In this document: piece after piece, positions 5,229-40,215 of the stretch
Numbering within the stretch: the stretch's first letter is position 1
Layout: every line of letters begins with the position of its first letter
Assembly (NCBI GenBank): GCA_963747455.1
Contig: CAVVEW010000001.1
Span: forward strand, 32,005-96,004
Length of the DNA stretch: 64,000 nucleotides
Source: an uncultured Candidatus Saccharibacteria bacterium
GTDB taxonomy: Bacteria > Patescibacteriota > Saccharimonadia > Saccharimonadales > Saccharimonadaceae
Direction: 5' to 3'
Translations under genes and position numbers: made by a program
Notes under the pieces: model-generated
Database searches by the model: none
Seen by the model: only the letters and a program-made list of their open reading frames with translations
Told to the model about the DNA's origin: nothing

Positions 5229-8225
5229 CTATCTGGCGGTCGATAAGGTATTCATTTGGTGTTTCGACAGCACCTTAACTCGCGAGTGCCTGGGGGTCCC
5301 CGCCGGTACGCGCACACCGAATCTCGGGTCTTCGCTATCGTCGATATGGGTATTCATGTAGTAAATTTCTTTATGGATAGGAGGACGTGGGTCGGTAGGA
5401 TCGAGGTACGATGCAAGGACATTCATGATACCGCGCTCACGATCTTTGATGCGACCCTTGAGCATTGGGTTTGATTGAGCATCTTCGATGGCACGGAGGA
5501 TGGCCTAGTCGCCTCTTTTCAGGAATACTTTCACGGAAGTCTTCATTACGGTAGAGCTGCACCATACGTCCGAGCTCGTCTGGATCCATTGTTGACATGC
5601 GTTCTGGATCGTATTTACCACTGTTTGATTCGTATGCAATTAACTGTTCACTCATCGTGCTGAAGCCCTGCTCAGCCTTTACGCGGTATTGACCAGATTC
5701 CATGAGTGATCGCTGGGTTGAGGAGACGTAGCCAACCTTGAGTGGTGAGTTTGCGATTGCATCATTCATAATCTGCTGCATGTCACGGACATAGGTAACT
5801 TCTTCGCTATTTGCATCACCAACCAACGTTTTCGATCCATCCGTATTTACCTTGAAGTACGTATCGGTCGAGTCATCTCGCTCCAGTCCAAGTGTTGCAG
5901 ACCAGTCAATAATCTTCTGCGCCGCCCAGTTATTCCCAACGCCATTCATGACGCGTTGAATAGCAGCATGAATCTGGATCTCGTTTGCCTCAGATCCGTC
6001 TCGCATTTTCTTGTTCTCAATCACATTCATGAGCTCTTGTGCTTCATACCCTTCGTTCGTGTAGACGGAGTTGTAAGCTTTGACGTTCTCCATATGGAGG
6101 GCAGAGTGCTCGGAGCGTGCTTTCGCAAGCACCTTATCGGCACCAAGCTGATCGATACCACCGGCATATTCACGCGCGGACTGATCTGTGCGGAGGCGCT
6201 TCACTTCATTTGACTTGATCATGGTATCTGCGCTTGATTTACGCTTCTCTTGCTGGGCAATATCAAAGGTCAATTGGCCGAGGCGTTGCGTACGATCATC
6301 CATGGTTTGGCTACGAAGGTATTCGTCGACACCTTTTTGGAGACCGTCAAACTCGCTACCCTGGTAGCTGTTGACGCCGGCTTCCATCTCTCGGATGATT
6401 GCTTCGAACTTGTCTTCATCACGTTTCGCCTGGCTCTTGAGTTCGCGGGTGTTAAGTGTTGCGCGGTGAACACCCTGGTCAAAGTGGTGGCTGGTTGGGT
6501 CGAGCCGATTTTGCCAGTGTGCATCACCTGCAGCCTCAACTTGACCTTGGAACGTCTCAGCCTGCTTATGGAAGTCATGCGAATCGATAGCTCGTGTCTG
6601 CATGCGACGTCCGTAGCGACTCGATTCTTCGGCGATTTCGCGCTGACGAGAGGCATCTTGCCTGTTGTCGAGATACGACTCGTTGTCTTTTTTGGTCGCA
6701 TCGCGGCGGCGCTTTTGCTGGTCAAAGCGAAGGCCGAGTCGGGCTGCACCGCGGCCACGTGGGCTGAAGCGGCTGAGTTCGCCGTTTCGTCGGCGCTCGA
6801 CATCTTGCGCGGCATTGGCGAGCTTGTTGCTCTTGTGCATATCGGCATTGTCTTGTGCCCAGTTTCTCGCTCGGTCGGTTAGCCCCTTTTGCTTGTTGTT
6901 CGCCATATTGGCGATCTGACCGAGTACACCTGTGCTGAGGCGAGTAAGGAATGGCGTCAGAGCGAGCGGGATGACCTGGACGGTGAGACCGATGAGGAGC
7001 AGTGGAATCTGCATGGCTTCCGTGGCGTCTTTTGCTGTGCCGATAATTGCCGCCCCTGCGAGTTGCGACGCACCAAAGAGGAGGGCAAATGCTGGAAATA
7101 TGATGAGAAGGTTGGTAAATAGCTTGCGCCATTTGTCAAAAATCCCACGCGTGCTCGGTAGGATAAATGCGATAAATGCCAGTGGTGCGACGGCGGTCAA
7201 GACAACAATGAGCGCCTGGCGTGCTGCTAGGACGACAAAGGCTGCGAGTACGGAAAGCGCTGCGGATATCAGGGCCGCAAATATGATGAATCCCATCGAG
7301 GCCGCACTACCACCTGCTGCTGCAGCAAAACCGGCGATACCAATCGTGCCACCACCGAGTATTACGGCAGTCATGCTCGCCCAGTCAATATCTGTTGCTA
7401 CGGTATAGTTTTCTCTAATATTTACGAGGATTGCCTGAATTGAATATCCGAGAAGGTTTGAGGCATCGACTGCAAGGGCGCAGATCCAGAATGAGACATT
7501 GACGAGGATTGCGCCGATGATGAGCCGCGGTACCATGTCCTTGATGTTGTAGTTTGAGTATCCGGCGCCGGTAATCTGAGAGTAGATAATCACCATGAAA
7601 ACGATAAGGAAGGCGACGTTTGCGATATTACGCATAAGCTCCCAGAGCTGGTAGATTGCACTGTCGGTGGTGCTGATGGTTTGTACTTCGAGGAAGTTCG
7701 AGACGATGCTATATACCCAGTCGATACCGTCTGCGAGGTAGTTTGACAAGCGGACAGACCATCCAGCCTACGCCATCGATATTACAGTTGTTGTTGCCGG
7801 TTTGATTGGTGTCTTGCGCGTCGATAGTAAGGTCACGCGTGACGGTGACGGTTTGAGGGTTTGATGCTGCTGCAGTGAGGTAGTTGCCGCTGACGATTGG
7901 ATAGGAGATGAGGATGGCGCTATCTAGCCTGAGCGGGGTTGTCGGGGCCAAAGTACAGGACATTTGCCATCAGCGAATTGCCCGATCCTGAGCGCCACTC
8001 GTATTCATTTGGGGTGTCTGTTCGATCGGGGGGTGCGGTTACTTTGGTGTAGACACTGCCGTTGTAGGTTAGCTCGGTGCCCTTCCAGATAGCATCAGCA
8101 GCAAAGGCCTCCCGCGCGAGCGGTCCGACCGTGGTGAATGCCGGCATGAGAAAACTCAGTGCCAGTAGAATAATAAAGCGCCGAAAGTGTACCCTCGGCG
8201 CGCGTTGTTTACGCGTAACCCACAT
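5229..8225 (-). CDS. giant VirB6/TrbL-like polytopic T4SS protein, paralogue 2 (frameshifted)
   Basis: Main ORF 5437-7749 (770 aa) with MVPRLIIGAILVNVSFWICALAVD and FDKWRKLFTNLLIIFP. The N-terminal ectodomain is in ORFs 7920-8225 (signal peptide MWVTRKQRAPRVHFRRFIILLALSFLMPAF) and 7709-7963 (CNIDGVGWMVCP). The C-terminus continues in ORF 5229-5465 (AILRAIEDAQSNPMLKGRIKD..) after an extra G near 5500. Confidence 0.65.
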
Positions 8226-13187: not shown

Positions 13188-13280
13188 GGAGGAGTACCCA
13201 AGTGGCTGAAGGGGACGGTTTGCTAAATCGTTAGTGTGGGGAGACCTGCAGCGGGAGTTCGAATCTCCCCTCCTCCGCCA
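13188..13280 (+). tRNA. tRNA-Ser (anticodon GCT)
   Basis: GGAGGAG acceptor, anticodon loop TTGCTAA, long variable arm, T-arm GGGAG-TTCGAAT-CTCCC, encoded CCA. Confidence 0.9.
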
Positions 13281-13321
13281 AATAAAATAGAGTAGTGCGG
13301 CTGCACTACTCTATTTTATTT
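13281..13321 (+). terminator. 19-bp perfect hairpin after tRNA-Ser(GCT)
   Basis: AAATAAAATAGAGTAGTGC ggct GCACTACTCTATTTTATTT (13280-13321). Confidence 0.6.
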
Positions 13322-13330
13322 GCTTCGGAA

Positions 13331-13427
13331 GTTCGGCGAAGCGCGGTGCAGAAACAAAAGCAGCGTTAGCTATTTTTGTTTCAAGCAAGCGGAGGAGCGA
13401 GCAAAGTGAGCGATATCTCCCCTCCTC
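13331..13427 (+). repeat. tRNA-linked repeat E1: pseudo 3'-half of tRNA-Ser(GCT) split in the T-loop
   Basis: GTTCG + 79-nt insert (GCGAAGCGCGGTGCAG...CAAGCAAGCGGAGGAGCGAGCAAAGTGAGCGAT) + ATCTCCCCTCCTC. The last 13 nt repeat tRNA positions 13263-13275. Confidence 0.6.
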
Positions 13428-13449
13428 TCGAATCTGCTATGATTGAACT

Positions 13450-14728: not shown

Positions 14729-14805
14729 GCACCCGTAGCTCAGCTGGATAGAGCATCGGCTTGCGGAGCCGAAGGCCATAGGTTCGAATCCTGTCGGGTG
14801 TACCA
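14729..14805 (+). tRNA. tRNA-Arg (anticodon GCG)
   Basis: GCACCCG acceptor, D-arm TAGCTCAGCTGGATAGAGC, anticodon stem-loop TCGGC-TTGCGGA-GCCGA, T-arm ATAGG-TTCGAAT-CCTGT, encoded CCA. Confidence 0.85.
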
Positions 14806-14874
14806 AGAAAAATGACTCATCAAAAGATGGGTCGTTTTTCTTGGTAGCATTCTGCAAGAATGCGAGAACCGTAA

Positions 14875-14971
14875 GGTTCGGCGAAGCGTAGTGCAGCGAG
14901 AAAAGCGCGAAGCATTTTTCGAGCAAGCAAGCGGAGAAGCGAGCAACGCGACCGCTATCCTGTCGGGTGTA
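14875..14971 (+). repeat. tRNA-linked repeat E2: pseudo 3'-half of tRNA-Arg split in the T-loop
   Basis: GGTTCG + 76-nt insert (GCGAAGCGTAGTGCAG...CAAGCAAGCGGAGAAGCGAGCAACGCGACCGCT) + ATCCTGTCGGGTGTA. The last 15 nt repeat tRNA positions 14788-14802. Confidence 0.6.
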
Positions 14972-15032
14972 AAAGAACATTTTAGTTCCACTATCATCAG
15001 CTATGGTCATTTGTACGTAAAAAGAGTGATAG

Positions 15033-20811: not shown

Positions 20812-20903
20812 TGGCGGAGAGGAAGAGATTCGAACTCTCGGTACGAGTCGCCCCGTACACACGCTTTCCAAGCGTGCGCCTTCAACCGCTCGGCCACCTC
20901 TCC
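20812..20903 (-). tRNA. tRNA-Ser (anticodon GGA)
   Basis: Minus strand reads GGAGAGGTGGCCGAGCGGTTGAAGGCGCACGC-TTGGAAA-GCGTG..., long variable arm, GAGAG-TTCGAAT-CTCTT, CCA. Confidence 0.9.
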
Positions 20904-21065
20904 ATAGTTTCCTATTGTACAAAATTCATTCGACTCATACGAGCCCAATAGACAGGCGCAGCGCCGCGTGCTCCTATCGCTTAGCTCTTCCGCCTCCTCA
21001 CCGACAAATAAGTAAACTTATTGTCGATTTCGCTCGGCTCCACCAACCGCTCGGCCACCTCTCCA
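20904..21065 (-). repeat. repeat upstream of tRNA-Ser(GGA) ending in a 22-nt copy of the tRNA 5' end
   Basis: CAACCGCTCGGCCACCTCTCCA at 20883-20904 (tRNA 5' end, plus strand) recurs at 21044-21065. The interval contains GGCGGAAGAGCTAAGCGAT, related to the E-repeat core, and a second degenerate copy GTGGAGCCGAGCG. Confidence 0.5.
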
Positions 21066-21147
21066 TTAGAACCTAGTATACACGAGTGAAAAATACATCA
21101 CGGTCATGGTTGCTCTCGTTGCAATTGGCAGTGATAATAGATAGAAT

Positions 21148-22008
21148 ATGCCGACCAAAAAACCTATTATCCGTTTGAACGGTCTCGTAAAAAAGTACGG
21201 GATTGGTGACGCTGAGCACCGAGCACTCGATACGGTCGATTTATCGATCGATGCGGGTGAGTTCGTGGCTATCATGGGGCCGTCGGGATGCGGCAAGACG
21301 ACGCTACTCAATATCTTGGGTCTGCTCGACCGTGCAGATGATGGCGAATACCTACTCGACAACGAGGACGTTGAGCAATTCTCTGATCGGCGCCGTGCAC
21401 ACGTTCGCTCAAAACAAATCGGCATCGTATTTCAAAACTTCAACCTGATTGATCGCATGACCGTAATCGAAAACGTCGCCCTTCCTCTGACCTATCATGG
21501 TTTGCGGCGTACAAAGCGCCTCGAAGCTGCGAGCCAATCGCTCAAGACATTTCATCTCTCTGAGCGAGAGTATTATCTGCCCCATCAGCTATCTGGTGGA
21601 CAAATGCAACGCGTGGCGATCGCACGTGCGCTCGTAAACAAGCCTACCCTCATCTTGGCCGACGAGCCAACTGGTAATCTCGACAGCCGCTCAAGTCACG
21701 TCATCATGGAAGAGCTAGCGGATTTGCACCGTCGTGGAAACACAATTCTTATGGTGACTCATAATCCCAATCTAACAAGTTATGCGAGTCGTGTAATCAA
21801 CATGCTCGATGGTCGTGTGGCGAGTGACAAGAAGATTCGGGTTTCGGCGGTATCGGATGTCCAGAAGATTACGCTCCGTACACCGAAGAAGACGAAAGCC
21901 GAGGAAAAGCCTACGAAAAAAGCGACGAGTAAGAAAAAGTCGACCAAGACCGCAACAAAGAAGCGAGTGACCGCAAAAAATGCGAAGAAAAAGGAGAAAA
22001 CGTCGTGA
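21148..22008 (+). CDS. ABC transporter ATP-binding protein (MacB/LolD-like) with Lys-rich C-terminal tail
   Basis: Walker [10 protein letters not shown], signature [15 protein letters not shown], Walker [13 protein letters not shown]. 60-aa K/T-rich tail. Confidence 0.85.
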
Positions 22009-23223
22009 GAATGCTCATCGCTGACTATATCGATACCGCTGCGCACTCGCTTCGCATGAACAGGATGCGAACGCTCCTCACTACCGTTGGAGTTGCAATA
22101 GGTATTGCGAGCGTTACGACGATTCTGGCACTCGCGCAGGGCGTAACCTCTGCGGTGAACAGCCAAGTGAACCAAGTCGGCGGAAATGTCGCGGTCATTC
22201 GACCTGGTGTCGAAACGCCGAGTGATTTGACGCGTCCCATTCTGCCCCAGCAGTTCAACACGAGCAGCTTAACAGAGAATGATGTCGAGGCTATACGTAC
22301 AGCAAACAAGGGGCTTACCGTTGCGCCTATCATGACGCTAAACGCAACCCTTCGATCGAAAACATCTACTGTTCCAACTACCTTGGTTGCGAGTTCACCT
22401 GAACTGGCTAAGACGACCGATTTACCGATAGATCAAGGACAGTTTCTCGATGAAAGTACCTCGGACAATGTCGCTATCGTTGGTCGGCAGCTCTCGATTG
22501 ATCTGTTCGGTACAGATAACCCAATCAGTCAGCAGTTTAAGGTTCAGAGGAGAGACGTTCACCGTTATCGGCGTACTGAAGATGCTCGACAATCCAGTCA
22601 ATTACAACAATGTAGATTTTGATAATGCCGCAGTAATCACTTTCCGCCAGGGGAAGTCGCTCAACGATGGGCGTACGCAGATTCAGCAAATAAATATCCG
22701 TGCCAGCAGCCCTGAGGAGCTAGAAAAAGCAATCGATTCGATTTCTACACAATTGAAAAAACTTCACGGCGAAGATGACTTCCAAATCCTCACTGGCACC
22801 GATGTTGCATCGACGACCAATCGCACCTTTCAATGGGTGGCAGCAGTCATGACAGCAATTGCCGCAGTATCGCTACTCGTAGGTGGGATTGGCATCATGA
22901 ATATCATGCTCGTCGGGGTCGCAGAACGTACGCGCGAAATTGGTATCCGAAAGAGTGTGGGTGCAAGTAATGGCACGATCGTGATTCAGTTTATGGTTGA
23001 GGCATTGATGCTTAGCTTGCTCGGCGGCATCGTCGGTGTTATTGCAGGTCTGGTACTTGCGTTCTCACTATCGCTCGGTCTCTACTTTACACCGGTCTTT
23101 TCATGGCAGATTTTTGCTCTGGCGCTTGGCGTATCACTCGTTGTGGGCGTCATATTTGGCCTTTATCCTGCAATACGTGCTGCGCGAAAAGACCCTATCG
23201 AGAGTCTTCGACAGTACAGATAG
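22005..23223 (+). CDS. ABC transporter permease, MacB/FtsX-like (frameshift near 22555)
   Basis: ORFs 22005-22622 and 22450-23223 join at ..ISQQFKV/GETFTVIGVLK... The C-terminal FtsX block IGIRKSVGASNGTIVIQFMVEAL is present. Start overlaps the ATPase stop (GTGA). Confidence 0.75.
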
Positions 23224-23369: not shown

Positions 23370-24416
23370 TTAGGCGAGTTCTTGCTTCAACTTTGTGATC
23401 AGAGGCACTGGGCCAGGATCGGCGTTGTTGAGGATACCGACATAGATACTGACAAAATCTGCGAGCAGGTGCCCTGCGACAAGTTGCTTGAGGAGGGTGT
23501 CTCCGACGAGATGAATGGTATTTGCCTTCGGTCGTTTGCCGCTGAGTAAACGATCACTCACCTCGAATCGTTTGAGAATTTGTGGATGTTCTTTATCGCT
23601 GACAAGGTCGAAAATAACAAACGGCTTGTCGATTGGGTGTGAGGTCCAGCCGATGAATTCGTTGTGATTGACCTCTGGGTAATAGTTCCAAAACGCGACG
23701 TTTTTGGCATTTTCATTCCAGCTAATCTTCCATTTGTAGGCGAGTGAGCGCGTGTCGTAGCCGCCATAAAATACTGGCGTCTTTCCGACAGCCGTCAGTG
23801 CTAATTGCTTGGCATAGTTTCGCTCAACAGGCACTTCTTTGACCCATTTTTCGCTCTGCTCATGGAGCCACTCAGAGGCGTCTTCTAGTTCGGCTAGATG
23901 TGGCTTGGCTTTGAGCACGCCAAAGTGGTCGAGTAGTGTGACAAGCACGCGGACCTGAACAAAGGTCAGCATGCGTGGCTGAATTTTGATGTCTGGCAAG
24001 GTTACATTGACGACTTTGTCGGCCATGGCCGTTTCGCGCAGCTTGCCACCACCAGCGATAACGGCAAGTTGACTGCCGCGTTTTCGCGCCTGGGCGTATG
24101 CATTTAAAATTTCTTCGGTGTTGCCAGAACAACTCGAAGTGATTACGAGCGTGTCTTCATCTGCATAGGTGGGTAAACTGTAATCCTTGACTACTTCAAA
24201 AGGTATGCAAAGGTCTGCATCGAGCCATGATTTTACAAATTCTGCAGCGAGCGCTGATCCGCCCATGCCTGCAAACACGATGTTTTTCACCGTACGGTGA
24301 TCATGCTCTGGCTCGTTTATCTCGACATCCATAGCGAGTTGTTCGTACTGCATCGCTCCTGAATCGAGCGTCCGTTCACTGTCTCGTTGCTTTAGCACAT
24401 TACTATCATCGAGCAT
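23370..24416 (-). CDS. bifunctional phosphoglucose/phosphomannose isomerase (SIS domain, PGI/PMI family)
   Basis: Start taken at MLDDSNVLKQ (ATG 24416 after GGTGGAG). SIS motif VFAGMGGSALAAEF and SSCSGNTEE. C-terminal ADFVSIYVGILNNADPGPVPLITKLK is typical of archaeal-type PGI/PMI. Confidence 0.65.
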   Translation of the reverse strand: MLDDSNVLKQRDSERTLDSGAMQYEQLAMDVEINEPEHDHRTVKNIVFAGMGGSALAAEFVKSWLDADLCIPFEVVKDYSLPTYADEDTLVITSSCSGNTEEILNAYAQARKRGSQLAVIAGGGKLRETAMADKVVNVTLPDIKIQPRMLTFVQVRVLVTLLDHFGVLKAKPHLAELEDASEWLHEQSEKWVKEVPVERNYAKQLALTAVGKTPVFYGGYDTRSLAYKWKISWNENAKNVAFWNYYPEVNHNEFIGWTSHPIDKPFVIFDLVSDKEHPQILKRFEVSDRLLSGKRPKANTIHLVGDTLLKQLVAGHLLADFVSIYVGILNNADPGPVPLITKLKQELA

Positions 24417-24508
24417 CTCTCCACCTTTCTGTCTTGTCTCGCTGTTTGTCTCCATGATACAATACACAGTAAGTAAGCGTAAACAATATATCGATAAACG
24501 AGGTGGGC

Positions 24509-25004
24509 ATGAATATCGAACCAACAGAACAGAAGCAATCGATTAGTGATGATCAAGAACTCGCGAAAGTACTCGCGGGTATCAACAATGACGCTGGTGA
24601 GCCAGCTCCAGTAGCAGATGCGGTTATGCCTGCGATGCCAACGCCGCCTACTCCCCCACCTGTGGCGGATGATGCAGCAGCTGCTGTTGTAGCAGACCCT
24701 ATCGATGAACCAGCACTGCCTGCCGTCCCTGCCGCAGAAGCAGGACGAATCGCTCGAGGTTATCAAGAAGCAAGCCCTCGGCGAACTCCGCCCACTTGTC
24801 GATAAGCTCCAGGTTGAGCCAGATGAAAAGTTCGACATCTACCTCCTGCTCCTTCGTTCAACTGACGACAAAGAGCTCATCGCGCCAGCACACGAGGCTG
24901 CCAAGGCTATCACCGATGAGTCAAAGCGCGCCCAGGCACTCCTCGATATCATCAAGGAAATCGACTTTTTGAGCCAAGGCACTTCCTCGGCACAGCAACT
25001 GTAG
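24509..25004 (+). CDS. hypothetical protein with A/P-rich linker (frameshift near 24740)
   Basis: GAGGTG then ATG 24509. ORF 24503-24805 joins ORF 24705-25004 (..DESLEVIKKQALGELRPLVDKLQVEPDEKFDIYLLLLRSTDDKELI..). Confidence 0.4.
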
Positions 25005-25023
25005 ATTTACTACCTCCAAAACC

Positions 25024-25052
25024 AAAACTCCCGCTTATACGGCGGGAGTTTT
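25024..25052. terminator. bidirectional terminator
   Basis: AAAACTCCCGC ttatacg GCGGGAGTTTT. A second hairpin CCCCGACTTGCGCCGGGG lies at 25070-25087. Confidence 0.6.
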
Positions 25053-25157
25053 GTATATGCATGAAGATGCCCCGACTTGCGCCGGGGACTTTTTCGTACC
25101 AATGGTACTCTCGGTCTGGACGGGCCGATAACGTTTTCATGAGAGGATGTATGCGTG

Positions 25158-25685
25158 TCAGTAGCGAGTACTCTCGCGCCGCTCGTCGACAAGCCGAAGC
25201 GCGGCGTTGCGCATCACCTTGTTCGCCTCTGTACGAAGATGGTTGACTCTGTTGGCACTCAGACCCATCTGAATGCCGAGCTCCATGGCGGTGAGGATCG
25301 AGCCGCCGTCCATGCCAGACCGCCGAAGGACGACCTGAAGCTGAGTTCTGGTCAACTGACGAAGAAGCCAGCTGACGTTTTGCTCAGTGCTCAACCATTC
25401 CCTTTCGTCCTCGTAGAGCGCGCGAAGTTTTTGCGCCTTCTTGTGACCTTCCGCGTCGATCTTCGCAGGCAAGAGGGTGGCAATCAGCTTCTCGCACTCA
25501 GCCGGCCTAAGCTTGCTAGGAACGTGTGGAGCTTGCGCGGTGAGTGACTCAGCAAGTTCGCGTACTCGCCCCGGATTACGGAGGGCCCGCTGAAGATCCC
25601 ATTCCCTCACGCCGAGAGCCGCGAGCGCCTCAATGAGAGACGTCGCCGTTGAAAGTCGTACATCGTCGGTATCGATGGTGACCAT
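25158..25685 (-). CDS. GC-rich orphan: HTH protein with sigma-70 region-4-like C-terminus
   Basis: GGGGAGG then ATG 25685 (the longer track ORF 25158-26198 is an out-of-frame extension over groEL). The C-terminus LTRTQLQVVLRRSGMDGGSILTAMELGIQMGLSANRVNHLRTEANKVMRNAALRL has the spacing of sigma region 4.2 (L..RE..VL.LR.G.....T..EIG...GVS..RV.Q....A...LR). Confidence 0.5.
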   Translation of the reverse strand: MVTIDTDDVRLSTATSLIEALAALGVREWDLQRALRNPGRVRELAESLTAQAPHVPSKLRPAECEKLIATLLPAKIDAEGHKKAQKLRALYEDEREWLSTEQNVSWLLRQLTRTQLQVVLRRSGMDGGSILTAMELGIQMGLSANRVNHLRTEANKVMRNAALRLVDERRESTRY

Positions 25686-25757
25686 CGTACCTCCCCTTCG
25701 TGAAATGTTGCCCTGAGGGCAACAACGAAACTCCCGCTTAAGCAAGGAGTTGAATGA

Positions 25758-25786
25758 ATTATATAACTTTATATAAAAAAAAGCAA
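25758..25786 (-). promoter_or_regulatory. sigma70-type promoter of the sigma4-like gene
   Basis: Minus strand has TTGCTT (25781-25786), a 17-nt spacer and TATAAT (25758-25763). The -35 overlaps the groEL terminator stem. Confidence 0.4.
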
Positions 25787-25808
25787 GACCGTCGCAAAAC
25801 GGTCTTGC
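25783..25808 (-). terminator. groEL terminator
   Basis: GCAAGACC gtcgcaaaac GGTCTTGC, followed on the minus strand by T8. Confidence 0.7.
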
Positions 25809-25825
25809 TTTCGCAGAGGGTGAAT

Positions 25826-27470
25826 TTACATCATCCCAGGCATGCCGCCACCCATTGAAGGCATCGATGATTCCTTCTCTGGGATATCGACGACGAGGGC
25901 ACCCATAGTTGCTGCGGTGCTCGCGATAGATACGGCATTTTGCACAGCTTCTTTGGTGACGCGAGTTGGGTCGATGACACCGGCTTTTTTGACATCGATG
26001 AGGCCTTTGTCGGGTGCCATGACATCGACACCCATACCAGCCTTGGCTGACTTCAACCTGTGCCAGGAGCGCTGCAGAATTGAGGCCAGCATTTGCGGTG
26101 ATCTGCAGGAATGGCTGCTTGAGCGCATCACGGACGACTTGGCGACCAGCGCTTCGCTGTCGCGCCGTCGACCTTGATGCTGCCTGCGAGGTTGACAAGT
26201 GTTACGCCACCACCAGCGACGATACCTTCAGCGAGTGCGGCTTTTGTAGCGGCGACGGCGTCATCGACGCGGAATTTCTTCTCATCGATCTCGGTTTCGG
26301 TTGCGCCACCGACTTTGATGACGGCGACTTTGCCGCCGAGTGCTGCCGCACGCTTTTCGTACTGCTCTTTGTCGTATTCGCTGCTGGCGTTTTCGGCTTG
26401 AGCGACGATTTGCGTCAGACGAGCCTTGAGCTCTCTGGCGTACCAGCACCTTCGATGATCGTCGTTTCGTCTTTGCCGACGATAACTTTGCGGGCTGTAC
26501 CGACTACTTCGAGGCCGACGTTTTCAAATGTCAGACCTTGGTCTTCGCTGATAACCTGTGCACCGACAAGTGTGGCGATATCGGCCATGATGTCTTTGCG
26601 GCGGTCACCGAACGACTGGCGCCTTGACGACGACAGTGTTGAGCACACCCTTTGAGCTTGTTGAGTACAAGGATACTGAGTGCTTCCCCGTCGACTTCGT
26701 CGGCGATGAGCACGATGTCTTTTTTGCCAGCTTGCGCCAATTTTTCGATCAGCGGCAATAGCTCTTGCGCACTCGAAATCTTTTTGTCGGTGATGACAAT
26801 CGATGGTTTTTCGTAGACTGCTTCTTGGCGATTGGAATCAGTCACGAAGAATGGACTTGCCCAGCCTTTGTCGAGGCTAAATCCTTCGACAACTTCGGCT
26901 TCCATGTCGAGGCTTTGGCCGGCTTCAACCGTGATGACGCCGTCTTTGCCGACTTTTTCCATAACGTCTGCAATCAGCTTGCCGATCTGGCTATCACCAG
27001 CAGAAATCGTCGCGACTTCAGCGATACGATCACTTTTGCCTTCGATTGATTCGCTCAGGCCATCGATGCTTTTGACAATCTCAGCGCCCGCAGCTTCGAT
27101 GCCTCGTTTGAGTTCCATCGGGTTGTGACCAGCGGCAATCAGGCGGTTGGCTTCGTTTAAGATGTGGTACGTCAGTACTGTTACGGTCGTCGTACCGTCA
27201 CCGGCTACTTTGTTGAGCTTGCTCGCAGCCTGATTTGATAAGCTCTGCACCGACTTTGTAGCCGAGTGTTTCGTCGTCTTCCTCTGGTAGGTCAACGCCT
27301 TCAGCTACCGTTACACCATCGTGTGTGACCGTTGGGCCGCCGTAGCCTTTGGCAATCACAACATTGCGGCCTTTTGGCCCGTAGGTTACCTTGACTGCGT
27401 CGTAGAGCGCTTTTGCTCCGCCAAGTACACGAGCGCGCGCATCATCATCATAAAAAACTTTTTTTGCCAT
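25826..27470 (-). CDS. groL: chaperonin GroEL (at least 4 frameshifts in this assembly)
   Basis: AGGAGGAACC then ATG 27470. [38 protein letters not shown].., [39 protein letters not shown], and a C-terminal GGGMPGMM repeat. Pieces lie in ORFs 27198-27515, 26531-27295, 26415-26648, 25158-26198 (part) and 25826-26131. The first break lies at TTT 27234-27236. Confidence 0.9.
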
Positions 27471-27600
27471 GGTTCCTCCTATATTGCTCACACTGAATGC
27501 ACCGCCCGCGACCATACGCCTCTATTGTTCTATTGAAATATCGGCTCTCCAAAAATGGAGAATGGTCGTCGGACGTGTGGCATCCAGTACTCGCAAGTTG

Positions 27601-27916: not shown

Positions 27917-27943
27917 TTAGCACTCGTCAAGCGCGAGTGCTAA
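27917..27943. promoter_or_regulatory. CIRCE operator (HrcA binding site) upstream of groES-groEL
   Basis: TTAGCACTC-gtcaagcgc-GAGTGCTAA is a perfect match to the TTAGCACTC-N9-GAGTGCTAA consensus. Confidence 0.9.
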
Positions 27944-39926: not shown

Positions 39927-40014
39927 GGAGAGGTGCAGGAGTGGTTGAACTGGCCGCTCTCGAAAAGCGGTAAGCCGCAAGGTTTCGAGGGTTCGAATCC
40001 CTCTCTCTCCGCCA
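39927..40014 (+). tRNA. tRNA-Ser (anticodon CGA)
   Basis: GGAGAGG acceptor, anticodon stem-loop CCGCT-CTCGAAA-AGCGG, long variable arm, T-arm GAGGG-TTCGAAT-CCCTC, CCA. Terminator hairpin at 40018-40058. Confidence 0.9.
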
Positions 40015-40093
40015 TGAGAAAACGTCTCGTCGGGCTTTCGTCCTAACGAGACGTTTTCTTTTTGTCAGAAAAGAGAAGGGATTTGAACCCAGG

Positions 40094-40186
40094 GGTTCGT
40101 GAAGCGAGCGATGCGAAGTATCGCGTGCGGAAATAGGAAGCCCCGCTACTCGCGGGCGCGACCGCTATCCCTCTCTCTCCGCCATG
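40094..40186 (+). repeat. tRNA-linked repeat E3: pseudo 3'-half of tRNA-Ser(CGA) split in the T-loop
   Basis: GGTTCG + 67-nt insert (TGAAGCGAGCGATGCGAAG...CGCGGGCGCGACCGCT) + ATCCCTCTCTCTCCGCCATG. The last 20 nt repeat 39997-40016. Confidence 0.6.
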
Positions 40187-40215
40187 CAAAACGACCCAGA
40201 AATGGGTCGTTTTGC
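40186..40215. terminator. 13-bp perfect hairpin, bidirectional terminator
   Basis: GCAAAACGACCCA gaaa TGGGTCGTTTTGC. Confidence 0.6.

Follow-up and report, generated by a model that had tools for sequence, protein, structure and literature searches.

The 64-kb window analysed here (the whole stretch of DNA, to whose positions all coordinates refer) belongs to a Candidatus Saccharibacteria genome and carries, between groEL and a convergent neighbour gene, a small gene whose product resembles region 4 of sigma-70 factors (sigma-4; regions 2 and 3 are likewise termed sigma-2 and sigma-3). The gene is bracketed by two copies of a 13-mer, AAACTCCCGCTTA, and preceded by a leader of two hairpins, HP1 and HP2. 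Comparison loci are designated by L-numbers, and the features of the module and its flanks, including its open reading frames (ORFs) and 3' untranslated region (3'-UTR), are as follows.

23370-24416: phosphoglucose isomerase (PGI) gene, a close neighbour of the module
24503-25004, plus strand: convergent neighbour gene of about 150-160 amino acids, Saccharibacteria-wide and without a Pfam family; frameshifted and split in two here
25023-25053, no strand assigned: hairpin T1, a perfect bidirectional terminator (AAAACTCCCGC...GCGGGAGTTTT), lineage-specific, holding copy 1 of the 13-mer (25025-25037)
25070-25095, plus strand: hairpin CCCCG-N8-CGGGG followed by ACTTTTT, a family-wide terminator shared with the convergent neighbour gene (stem 25070-25087, called by the terminator scan)
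25096-25134, minus strand: conserved 3'-UTR block, consisting of ACGTTATCGGCCCGTCCAGACCGAGAGT (25107-25134) and a small hairpin, GTACCATTGGTAC (25096-25108)
25158-25685, minus strand: sigma-4 coding sequence, 175 amino acids, the only intact ORF between the repeat copies
25690-25696, minus strand: Shine-Dalgarno sequence GGGGAGG, 4 nt before the ATG, read directly
25707-25723, minus strand: leader hairpin HP2, GTTGCCC-TCA-GGGCAAC, with a 7-bp stem and a 3-nt loop
25729-25751, minus strand: leader hairpin HP1, sense AACTCCT-T-GC TTAA GC-GGGAGTT, at the predicted mRNA 5' end, holding copy 2 of the 13-mer (25728-25740)
25758-25786, minus strand: predicted promoter, TTGCTT (25781-25786), a 17-nt spacer and TATAAT (25758-25763), read directly
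25779-25812, minus strand: groEL intrinsic terminator, a 15-bp stem followed by T8, -22.1 kcal/mol, likewise called by the scan
25826-27515, minus strand: groEL, broken into at least four ORFs, the upstream flank of the slot

The position of the gene was found to recur. In the window and in L001, L004, L085, L089 and L090 it lies directly 3' of groEL and converges on the conserved neighbour gene; in L091 it also follows groEL, with four extra genes before the neighbour gene. The gene follows groEL in at least seven of the ten distinct contexts; L003 and L088 have other upstream genes (L003 is not beside groEL), and the L087 contig ends short of the upstream gene. A further 80 loci of GTDB species representatives were retrieved with the window PGI, nearly all from Candidatus Saccharibacteria/Saccharimonadales at 57-68% identity, and orthologues of the neighbour gene adjoin PGI in nearly all of them. 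A look-up of the exact PGI protein of the window gave no record. None of these loci yielded a relative of the sigma-4 gene (tblastn at 1e-3), and in at least 22 of the 80 species the site is empty, in keeping with the islet that a preliminary description of this DNA had proposed: groEL and the neighbour gene are separated by 33-162 bp (median about 63 bp) holding one bidirectional terminator, typically AAAATACCCGC...GCGGGTATTTT. In one further locus the stop codons of groEL and the neighbour gene overlap.

In other lineages the slot is filled by different genes, on the same strand as groEL; among them are a complete sigma-70-family factor that has regions 2 and 4 (L066:3447-4334), a 260-amino-acid family (L036:3594-4376 and L055:513-1298) and a family of about 350 amino acids (L014:3261-4289 and L068:3230-4294), both without a confident Pfam match, a 95-amino-acid ORF (L009:4085-4372) and a 689-amino-acid protein (L011:2232-4301). 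Given the empty sites in relatives and the different genes present in other lineages, the slot after groEL is, on comparative sequence grounds, a variable hotspot for accessory genes and the sigma-4 gene one of its accessory occupants. An acidic, coiled-coil-like protein beginning 'MERGF...' was also seen downstream of the sigma-4 gene in L091 (8745-9263) and alone in the slot in L008 (4031-4396), which makes it a further recurrent occupant here.

The junctions, on which the preliminary description had made its reading depend, were matched base for base by an independent contig. This 1,401-bp contig (L002, run ERR11718636) encodes an identical 175-amino-acid protein and is 100% identical to the window at 24933-25882 (951 bp), a tract that spans both junctions and comprises the module, the last 57 bp of groEL with its stop codon and the 3' end of the neighbour gene. 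Beyond the tract, the groEL sequences differ by 26 substitutions in the next 450 bp (about 94% identity), 22 of the 26 at codon position 3, and three groEL indels relative to L002 within 25880-26332 correspond to the window's own frameshifts, which L002 does not share. The switch in identity at about 25883 reflects either recombination between strains or a strain-mosaic contig. The same gene order is present in six other species-level loci from different samples; since L002 reproduces both junctions and the order recurs in these six loci, the adjacency of module and flanks is real and not chimeric. The frameshifts in the normally essential groEL, in the neighbour gene and in an FtsX-type permease gene (22005-23223, split in two) are most likely consensus errors of long reads or of a strain mixture, and not signs of pseudogenes. 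Frameshifts were also observed in the groES and groEL genes of the closest relative, L091.

The encoded protein comprises a helical portion (residues 1-100), a helix-turn-helix (HTH) of sigma-70 region 4 (4.1 plus 4.2) at about residues 101-160 and a long C-terminal helix. Searched as a single sequence it matched Pfam Sigma70_r4 (PF04545) with E=0.022 and 14.7 bits, below the gathering threshold of 24.1, the C-termini of NCBIfam SigD, RpoD and RpoS models at 1e-5 to 1e-4, and a PHROG sigma family at 8e-7, via region 4 only. A profile of the family retrieved region 4 of RpoS/RpoD from among the PDB sequences (E=5e-8, positions 101-159), and its best 60 matches there were all sigma factors apart from one weak match to a designed protein. 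Alignment to a sigma C-terminal fragment with hhalign gave a probability of 97%, over columns 102-164 only. The AlphaFold (AF2) model has a mean predicted local distance difference test score (pLDDT) of 81 and a predicted template-modelling score (pTM) of 0.70. Foldseek superposed it on isolated sigma-4 chains with template-modelling (TM) scores of 0.70-0.84 and root-mean-square deviations of 1.2-2.5 A (for instance 1rio_H, TM 0.84, 1.4 A; 1ku7_A, 0.80; 6ido_B, 0.70, 1.2 A), and in the model the recognition helix runs on as a helix of about 30 residues. There was no Sigma70_r2 match in any of the 11 family members, and the profile and hhalign matches were confined to residues 101-164. By profile, fold and hhalign alike the protein thus has the sigma-4 of the sigma-70 family and lacks sigma-2, and the earlier suggestion of a stand-alone region 4 without regions 2 and 3 is upheld.

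Several features set this sigma-4 apart within its fold. The motif 'L-T-x-x-Q/E-x-x-V-(L/I)-x-x-R-x-G-L-D/x-G' and the HTH are retained, and the Phe or Tyr that is near-universal in the 'RFGL' turn of sigma factors is Ser, Gly or Leu in all members. In the recognition helix V147, R151 and A154 are invariant and N148 nearly so, which argues that this helix surface is in use. From alignment and model, the protein is best described as a predicted genuine sigma-4 fold, lacking sigma-2 and sigma-3, whose recognition surface is distinct and conserved.

Residues 1-100 contain a hairpin-like conserved segment (LPAK-I/Y-DxEG ... LYxDERExL). A model of this isolated N-terminal domain had no fold match in the PDB (Foldseek, E>4), and the segment has no Pfam family. 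Two candidate identities were tried and rejected. By eye, LPAKIDxEG...LYxDERE has a likeness to the sigma finger, such that the protein might be a truncated sigma factor with sigma-3 and region 3.2, but hhalign aligned columns 102-164 only and the N-terminal model was without a PDB match. A match to the TALE (transcription activator-like effector)-type repeat protein BurrH (4cj9, E=1.9e-11) was the sum of 14 near-identical repeats of 0.5-5.4 bits with individual E values of at least 270; TALEs were not listed by Foldseek, and the score is kept as a lead and not as homology.

A full HMMER scan of 1.84 billion representative sequences returned 13 matches, 10 of them family members: nine full-length relatives (173-200 amino acids, 33-54% identity), one 117-amino-acid fragment and three sigma-like proteins matching region 4 only. 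Two distant matches, P0012 (528 amino acids) and P0014 (586 amino acids), carry several region-4-like stretches, four and two respectively, in unusual multi-sigma-4 architectures, and P0014 has by eye a tail resembling the C-terminus of DnaA. Peptide patterns of the family retrieved nothing from the GTDB genomes, the sole match in a scan of JGI metagenomes was spurious and of high GC (L092), and no Saccharibacteria region-4 protein was found in the literature. By these searches the family is very rare, at about ten clusters, and uncatalogued. There was no match to Pfam GerE (PF00196)/LuxR at E<=1 in the 11 members, and the PADLOC defence models gave 0 families at E<=1 for the four members scanned. 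A source in Actinomycetota or their phages, against which the preliminary description had suggested a search, was not borne out, all sizeable contexts being Saccharibacteria-like and the scans of viral contigs and structures giving nothing specific. A phage or plasmid origin was accordingly rejected: IMG/VR viral contigs held no relatives, BFVD viral structures gave weak generic sigma matches only, and the PHROG match was via region 4 only.

The gene itself and its GGGGAGG ribosome-binding site lie where the preliminary description had placed them, and a Shine-Dalgarno sequence of the GAAAGG(A/T) type occupies the same place in all orthologous leaders. The TTGCTT-17-TATAAT promoter of that description stood in part: both hexamers and their spacing are present and recur in L001, L003, L004 and L085 (TTGACA-17-TATAAT in L089), but TTGCTT matches TTGACA at three of six positions and a consensus scan consequently makes no call. 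The -35 hexamer overlaps the 3' arm of the groEL terminator. The claim of about 700 bp of clearly higher G+C likewise held in direction only. Gene G+C is 0.589 against 0.502 for the window, but among windows of 528 bp, whose maximum is 0.634, this ranks at the 97.6th percentile, the elevated segment is the coding sequence alone with AT-rich flanking UTRs, and the adjacent groEL reaches 0.60. At third codon positions the gene has a G+C of 0.66, compared with 0.54 +/- 0.08 in long ORFs. In each of the 10 loci the family gene exceeds its surroundings in G+C, by 2.5 to 16 points; the gene in the window shows enrichment in G+C without being an outlier.

At the 3' end, the AAAAGTCCCC...GGGGCAT hairpin is kept in L001, L004, L087, L089 and L090. 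The 3'-UTR block is identical at 27 of 28 nt in L001, where the protein is 54% identical; L003 and L085 have it too, their hairpins bearing compensatory changes. The block ACGTTATCGGYCCGT..GACCGAGA with its small hairpin (L001 747-800; L003 990-1040; L085 about 7160-7215) is nearly invariant, next to coding sequences only 42-54% identical, and L004 and L087 have in common a different 3'-UTR block, AAGTCCTGCGCCGCAGGCTCGT.

Comparison of the 5' regions of nine loci revealed a common leader layout: the -10 box, 6-9 nt, HP1, about 5 nt, HP2 and the Shine-Dalgarno sequence. Across loci HP1 is a hairpin of 6-7 bp with one bulged nucleotide, GC/GC at its apex and a tetraloop, and HP2 has 7 bp and a TCA-type triloop. 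Compensatory changes were found in seven of nine HP1 pairs, with the 1-nt bulge conserved and U:G wobbles on the sense strand only, and in five of seven HP2 pairs, in which 95% of alignment cells are paired. For the whole leader, 90.8% of cells in the nine-locus alignment are paired, compared with 38-44% when the partners are slid, and compensatory change affects 12 of the 16 pairs, values reached by none of 500 shuffles. Folding of single sequences recovered both hairpins in seven of the nine. Since U:G pairs are frequent on the sense strand, the structure is placed at the level of RNA. A covariance model had one match in the window (25707-25751, 57.6 bits) and, over 0.8 Mb of Saccharibacteria loci, matched only the 11 family loci, upstream of family genes. 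At the gathering score Rfam gave nothing in the window except tRNAs, with only sub-threshold terminator-like matches at 24800-25950; judged by these alignments and scans, the two-hairpin leader RNA tied to the family is uncatalogued. Its HP1, placed where the transcript is predicted to start, probably serves in addition to stabilise the mRNA.

The history of the gene may differ from that of its hosts. In a tree of PGI, the three carriers that have a PGI are spread over three clades, in each of which they have sisters without the gene; the sister of L004, for example, is L010, where the site is empty. Identities to the window were as follows.

L091: PGI 73%, neighbour C-terminus 63/67, family protein 34%
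L001: PGI not available, neighbour C-terminus 61/67, family protein 54%
L004: PGI 63%, neighbour C-terminus 53/67, family protein 47%

L091 is thus the closest host to the window and yet has the most distant family protein. This disagreement, the G+C excess and the identical tract in L002 fit an exchange of the module among Saccharibacteria by recombination through the conserved flanks.

Considering these observations together, we regard as probable, if well short of certain, that the locus is a self-contained accessory gene module of Candidatus Saccharibacteria encoding an accessory transcription factor with a sigma-4-type HTH. The module consists of a predicted sigma-A-type promoter of its own, the two-hairpin leader, a gene for a protein of novel N-terminal part plus sigma-4 and a structured 3' UTR with terminators. 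Its gain, loss or exchange would take place by homologous recombination in the flanking genes, which are conserved. The HTH would bind nucleic acid with a specificity other than that of the -35 hexamer, and the N-terminal part may serve as an interface for a partner or a signal. As the only HP2-like palindrome in 64 kb lies in the gene's own leader, the leader is the first candidate site of autoregulation. A role as heat-shock regulator of groESL was considered and found to be unnecessary, as groES has a canonical CIRCE operator and the leader motif does not recur near groES.

27917-27943, minus strand: CIRCE operator upstream of groES, TTAGCACTC-N9-GAGTGCTAA

The same CIRCE element precedes groES in L091, and groESL in these Saccharibacteria is presumably under HrcA control.

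A number of points weigh against a DNA-binding accessory factor that moves between genomes. No family member reaches the Sigma70_r4 threshold (best 14.7 against 24.1 bits), and three of the 11 match at E<=1. In an alignment to the hidden Markov model, the positions corresponding to R584, E585, R586, R588 and Q589 of Escherichia coli sigma-70, which we take to be its -35-reading residues, are respectively variable, G, Q, N148 and variable, so that the conservation of a -35 reader is absent and a protein-protein role could have taken the place of DNA binding. With only 11 sequences the family alignment is shallow, and confidence in the AF2 model of the N-terminal domain (pLDDT 73, pTM 0.40) is limited accordingly. 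Vertical descent with many losses and fast evolution would likewise give a patchy distribution, and the tract identical between L002 and the window could stem from strain mixing in either assembly rather than from recombination. The exact 13-nt identity of T1 and HP1 is not explained by the proposed module, and could be due to duplication, gene conversion or chance. Lastly, to the observed architecture, homology, conservation and context the proposal adds DNA binding, a target, a transcription start site and regulation that we infer from sequence.

Of the other explanations, the one that survives best is that the protein does not bind DNA and instead acts as a free sigma-4 module on the beta-flap of RNA polymerase or on proteins that bind region 4 of sigma-A, as a competitor or decoy directed, for example, at anti-sigma-like or phage proteins. 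The complete sigma-4 fold of group 1/2 type and the replaced residues at the -35-contacting positions are consistent with this, as are the fast evolution relative to the flanking genes and the conflict with the host tree, which fit a gene driven by conflict; mimicry of sigma also has a precedent in PhyR (PMC8103513). The (near-)invariance of N148 and R151 together with many basic residues suggests, however, a nucleic-acid surface, the change of the RFGL-turn Phe/Tyr to Ser/Gly/Leu would alter the sigma-4 core and its flap-facing packing, and the protein neither matches a PADLOC family nor lies next to phage or defence genes. We therefore consider a decoy unlikely, though worth keeping in mind.

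It is less probable still that the protein is the sigma-4-bearing subunit of a two-piece sigma factor of the SigO-RsoA type, with a small sigma-2-like partner encoded elsewhere. The genes for SigO and RsoA form one operon, but no partner ORF is present in the module, where the 3'-UTR block is non-coding and has no ATG in L001 or L003. A phmmer search found no sigma-2-containing ORF in the 64-kb window, and the N-terminal part is without similarity to sigma. In favour of a split factor are the size of 175 amino acids with sigma-4 present and sigma-2 absent, which fits the description of SigO (PMC8103513), and the complete sigma factor occupying the same slot in L066. More broadly, action of the sigma-4 module on the transcription machinery of an ultra-small genome of the candidate phyla radiation (CPR), whether as a decoy for factors targeting region 4 of sigma-A (e.g. 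phage anti-sigma-4 proteins) or as one half of a split sigma factor, seems doubtful from the sequences compared. Were it true, the rapid divergence and the swapping of alleles between close hosts would be the trace of a molecular arms race, and the conserved leader would be a new cis-regulatory RNA controlling a sigma-4 module.

There is similarly little to recommend an RNA-binding autoregulator that recognises both leader hairpins of its own mRNA and controls its translation or stability. The hairpins are indeed a feature of the RNA, by their sense-strand wobbles and strong covariation, they occur exclusively upstream of family genes, and the TCA loop of HP2 and the GC/GC apex and bulge of HP1 are conserved beyond the needs of pairing. 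Nevertheless, hairpins at a 5' terminus are sufficiently explained as stabilisers of the mRNA, and no HTH domain of the sigma-4 type with a capacity to bind RNA hairpins is known to us.

In the reading of the preliminary description itself, a GC-rich cassette of foreign origin had recently entered a terminator that was already there, the 13-mer being a target-site duplication and its second copy part of a decaying half-terminator. Its coordinates for the 13-mer are exact: the copies lie at 25025-25037 and 25728-25740, with no third in the window, and gap-free extension gives 18/21 identity (25017-25037 against 25720-25740). Copy 1 does lie inside a strong terminator, being the 5' arm of T1 and the start of its loop; the folding energy of T1 is -21.8 kcal/mol on one strand and -21.4 kcal/mol on the other, and an A-run precedes it and a T-run follows. 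It is similar to the lone terminators found at empty sites, such as AAAAACTCCGC..GCGGAGTTTTT in L013 and AACCTCCCG..CGGGAGGTT in L005, and is absent from L001, L003 and L004, which close with the AAAAGTCCCC...GGGGCAT hairpin common to the family and present in the window at 25070-25087. Copy 2 consists of the 3' arm (sense strand) and part of the loop of HP1, a weaker, bulged hairpin of -9.5 kcal/mol on the minus (gene sense) strand which is no degenerate copy of T1, but a conserved and covarying element in its own right.

An insertion would be favoured by a repeat that brackets the gene and extends to 18/21 nt, by the likeness of T1 to the terminators of empty sites, by the higher G+C of the gene and by the existence of relatives with empty sites, in at least 22 of which groEL and the neighbour gene are separated by one terminator. 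A target-site duplication should, however, have both copies outside the inserted unit, and copy 2 lies within HP1, which travels with the gene. Since HP1 is present in all family loci, including those without T1 (L001, L003, L004) and L003 away from groEL, the 13-bp repeat is, as far as sequence comparison goes, a resemblance between the module-borne leader hairpin and a lineage-specific extra terminator, and not a target-site duplication. Nor is the repeat alone beyond chance, because about 1.18 exact 13-mer direct pairs within 1 kb are expected per 64-kb window (first-order Markov), at least one occurring in 63% of simulations; for 12-mers with up to two mismatches there were 5 matches against 4.1 expected. 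No recombinase gene (transposase or integrase) was found between the repeats, where the sigma-4 gene is the only gene, or adjoining them, and no terminal inverted repeats inside them, the repeat search giving only the arm-to-arm complementarity of the two hairpins. Moreover, the same occupancy occurs in lineages with proteins just 33-55% identical, which makes the arrangement old. Base-level matching of the junctions was not possible, as the closest genome with a clean empty site (L005) has 68% PGI identity. T1 may be a duplicate of HP1, a product of gene conversion or a terminator kept from the ancestral site, and a target-site duplication figures in none of these. A recent insertion is accordingly very improbable. 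The preliminary description was thus right in its sigma-4 call and, in a broad evolutionary sense, in its call of an accessory gene, and wrong in reading the repeat as an insertion scar. Two further candidates were rejected: a repeated element (repetitive extragenic palindrome, REP, or miniature inverted-repeat transposable element, MITE), no further copies of the 13-mer, HP1/HP2 or T1 having been found in the window, and an integron-like cassette with an attC hairpin, HP1 being far too short, no integrase being present and the cassette having its own promoter.

Weakest of all is a chimeric or misjoined artefact of an error-prone assembly, for which the many frameshifts (groEL, FtsX permease, neighbour gene) and the abrupt identity change to L002 at about 25883, where the window contig may be a strain mosaic, can be adduced, but which can practically be set aside, the adjacency being already refuted as an artefact by L002, identical from groEL across both junctions to the neighbour gene, and by the order in six loci from different samples.

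Elsewhere in the window, one end of each of four tRNA genes, Ser-gct, Arg-gcg, Ser-gga and Ser-cga, is repeated at a distance of 150-170 bp as a copy of 13-24 nt.

13188-13430: tRNA interval, repeat pair 13263/13415
14729-14975: tRNA interval, repeat pair 14788/14957
20812-21070: tRNA interval, repeat pair 20883/21044
39927-40190: tRNA interval, repeat pair 39997/40167

The intervals behind tRNA-Arg and tRNA-Ser(gct) contain a terminator hairpin, as does, less clearly, the one behind tRNA-Ser(cga); next comes a shared block of about 90 nt (GTTCGGCGAAGCG..GTGCAG..AGCAAGCGGAG.AGCGAGCAA..) that ends exactly at the duplicated tRNA 3' end. By their sequence, the tRNA-end copies resemble remnants of att sites or a small repeat element that targets tRNAs.

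In CPR bacteria, the Saccharibacteria among them, genomes are tiny and transcription regulators very few, and next to nothing is known of gene control in their epibiotic life. Against this background, a bare sigma-4 domain with an N-terminal part, restricted to one lineage and preceded by a conserved leader RNA of its own, offers a tractable candidate for a regulator, and would be a second natural example, after SigO, of sigma-4 apart from sigma-2. The slot downstream of groEL emerges as a recombination hotspot for accessory genes in the phylum, and these include a sigma factor. The practical lesson is that a short direct repeat around a GC-rich gene can be two related hairpins and not an insertion scar. 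What is new is modest but genuine: a rare sigma-4-only protein family, its two-hairpin leader and a variable slot downstream of groEL.

Among known systems, the closest homologue of the HTH is region 4 of group 1/2 sigma-70 factors (RpoS, RpoD/SigA), with which it shares fold and sequence homology over about 60 residues. The family protein differs from this region at the -35-contact positions and the RFGL turn, by the helix extension of about 30 residues and by its sub-threshold match to Sigma70_r4, and without sigma-2 and sigma-3 it is not a sigma factor on its own. The 5'-terminal stem-loops of Gram-positive mRNAs protect against 5'-end-dependent decay, and HP1, whose distance from the -10 box is 6-9 nt in every locus and which is thereby placed at the predicted mRNA 5' end, is like them; here, however, there are two conserved hairpins, in which bulge, GC/GC apex and TCA loop exceed simple pairing. 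Regulators of the GerE/LuxR type are small proteins with a four-helix HTH DNA-binding unit structurally akin to sigma-4, and offer a working model for a stand-alone sigma-4-like DNA binder, although no family member matches their Pfam model and all sequence and fold matches are to sigma factors proper. RsoA supplies sigma-2 to SigO and is encoded next to it in one operon; for the family protein, no co-encoded sigma-2-like partner was found in the module or the 64-kb window (phmmer). SigO (YvrI) of Bacillus subtilis, in which sigma-4 occurs without sigma-2, the two being split between SigO and RsoA, is nonetheless the closest architectural analogue, of similar size and likened here by its description and not by sequence (PMC8103513). 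In Alphaproteobacteria, as part of the general stress response, the sigma-derived domain of PhyR does not initiate transcription and acts by protein-protein titration (PMC8103513), a precedent for a decoy. PhyR is an ECF (extracytoplasmic function)-type sigma-2 and sigma-4 fused to a receiver, whereas the family protein, with no receiver, joins a group-1/2-type sigma-4 to an unrelated N-terminal part.

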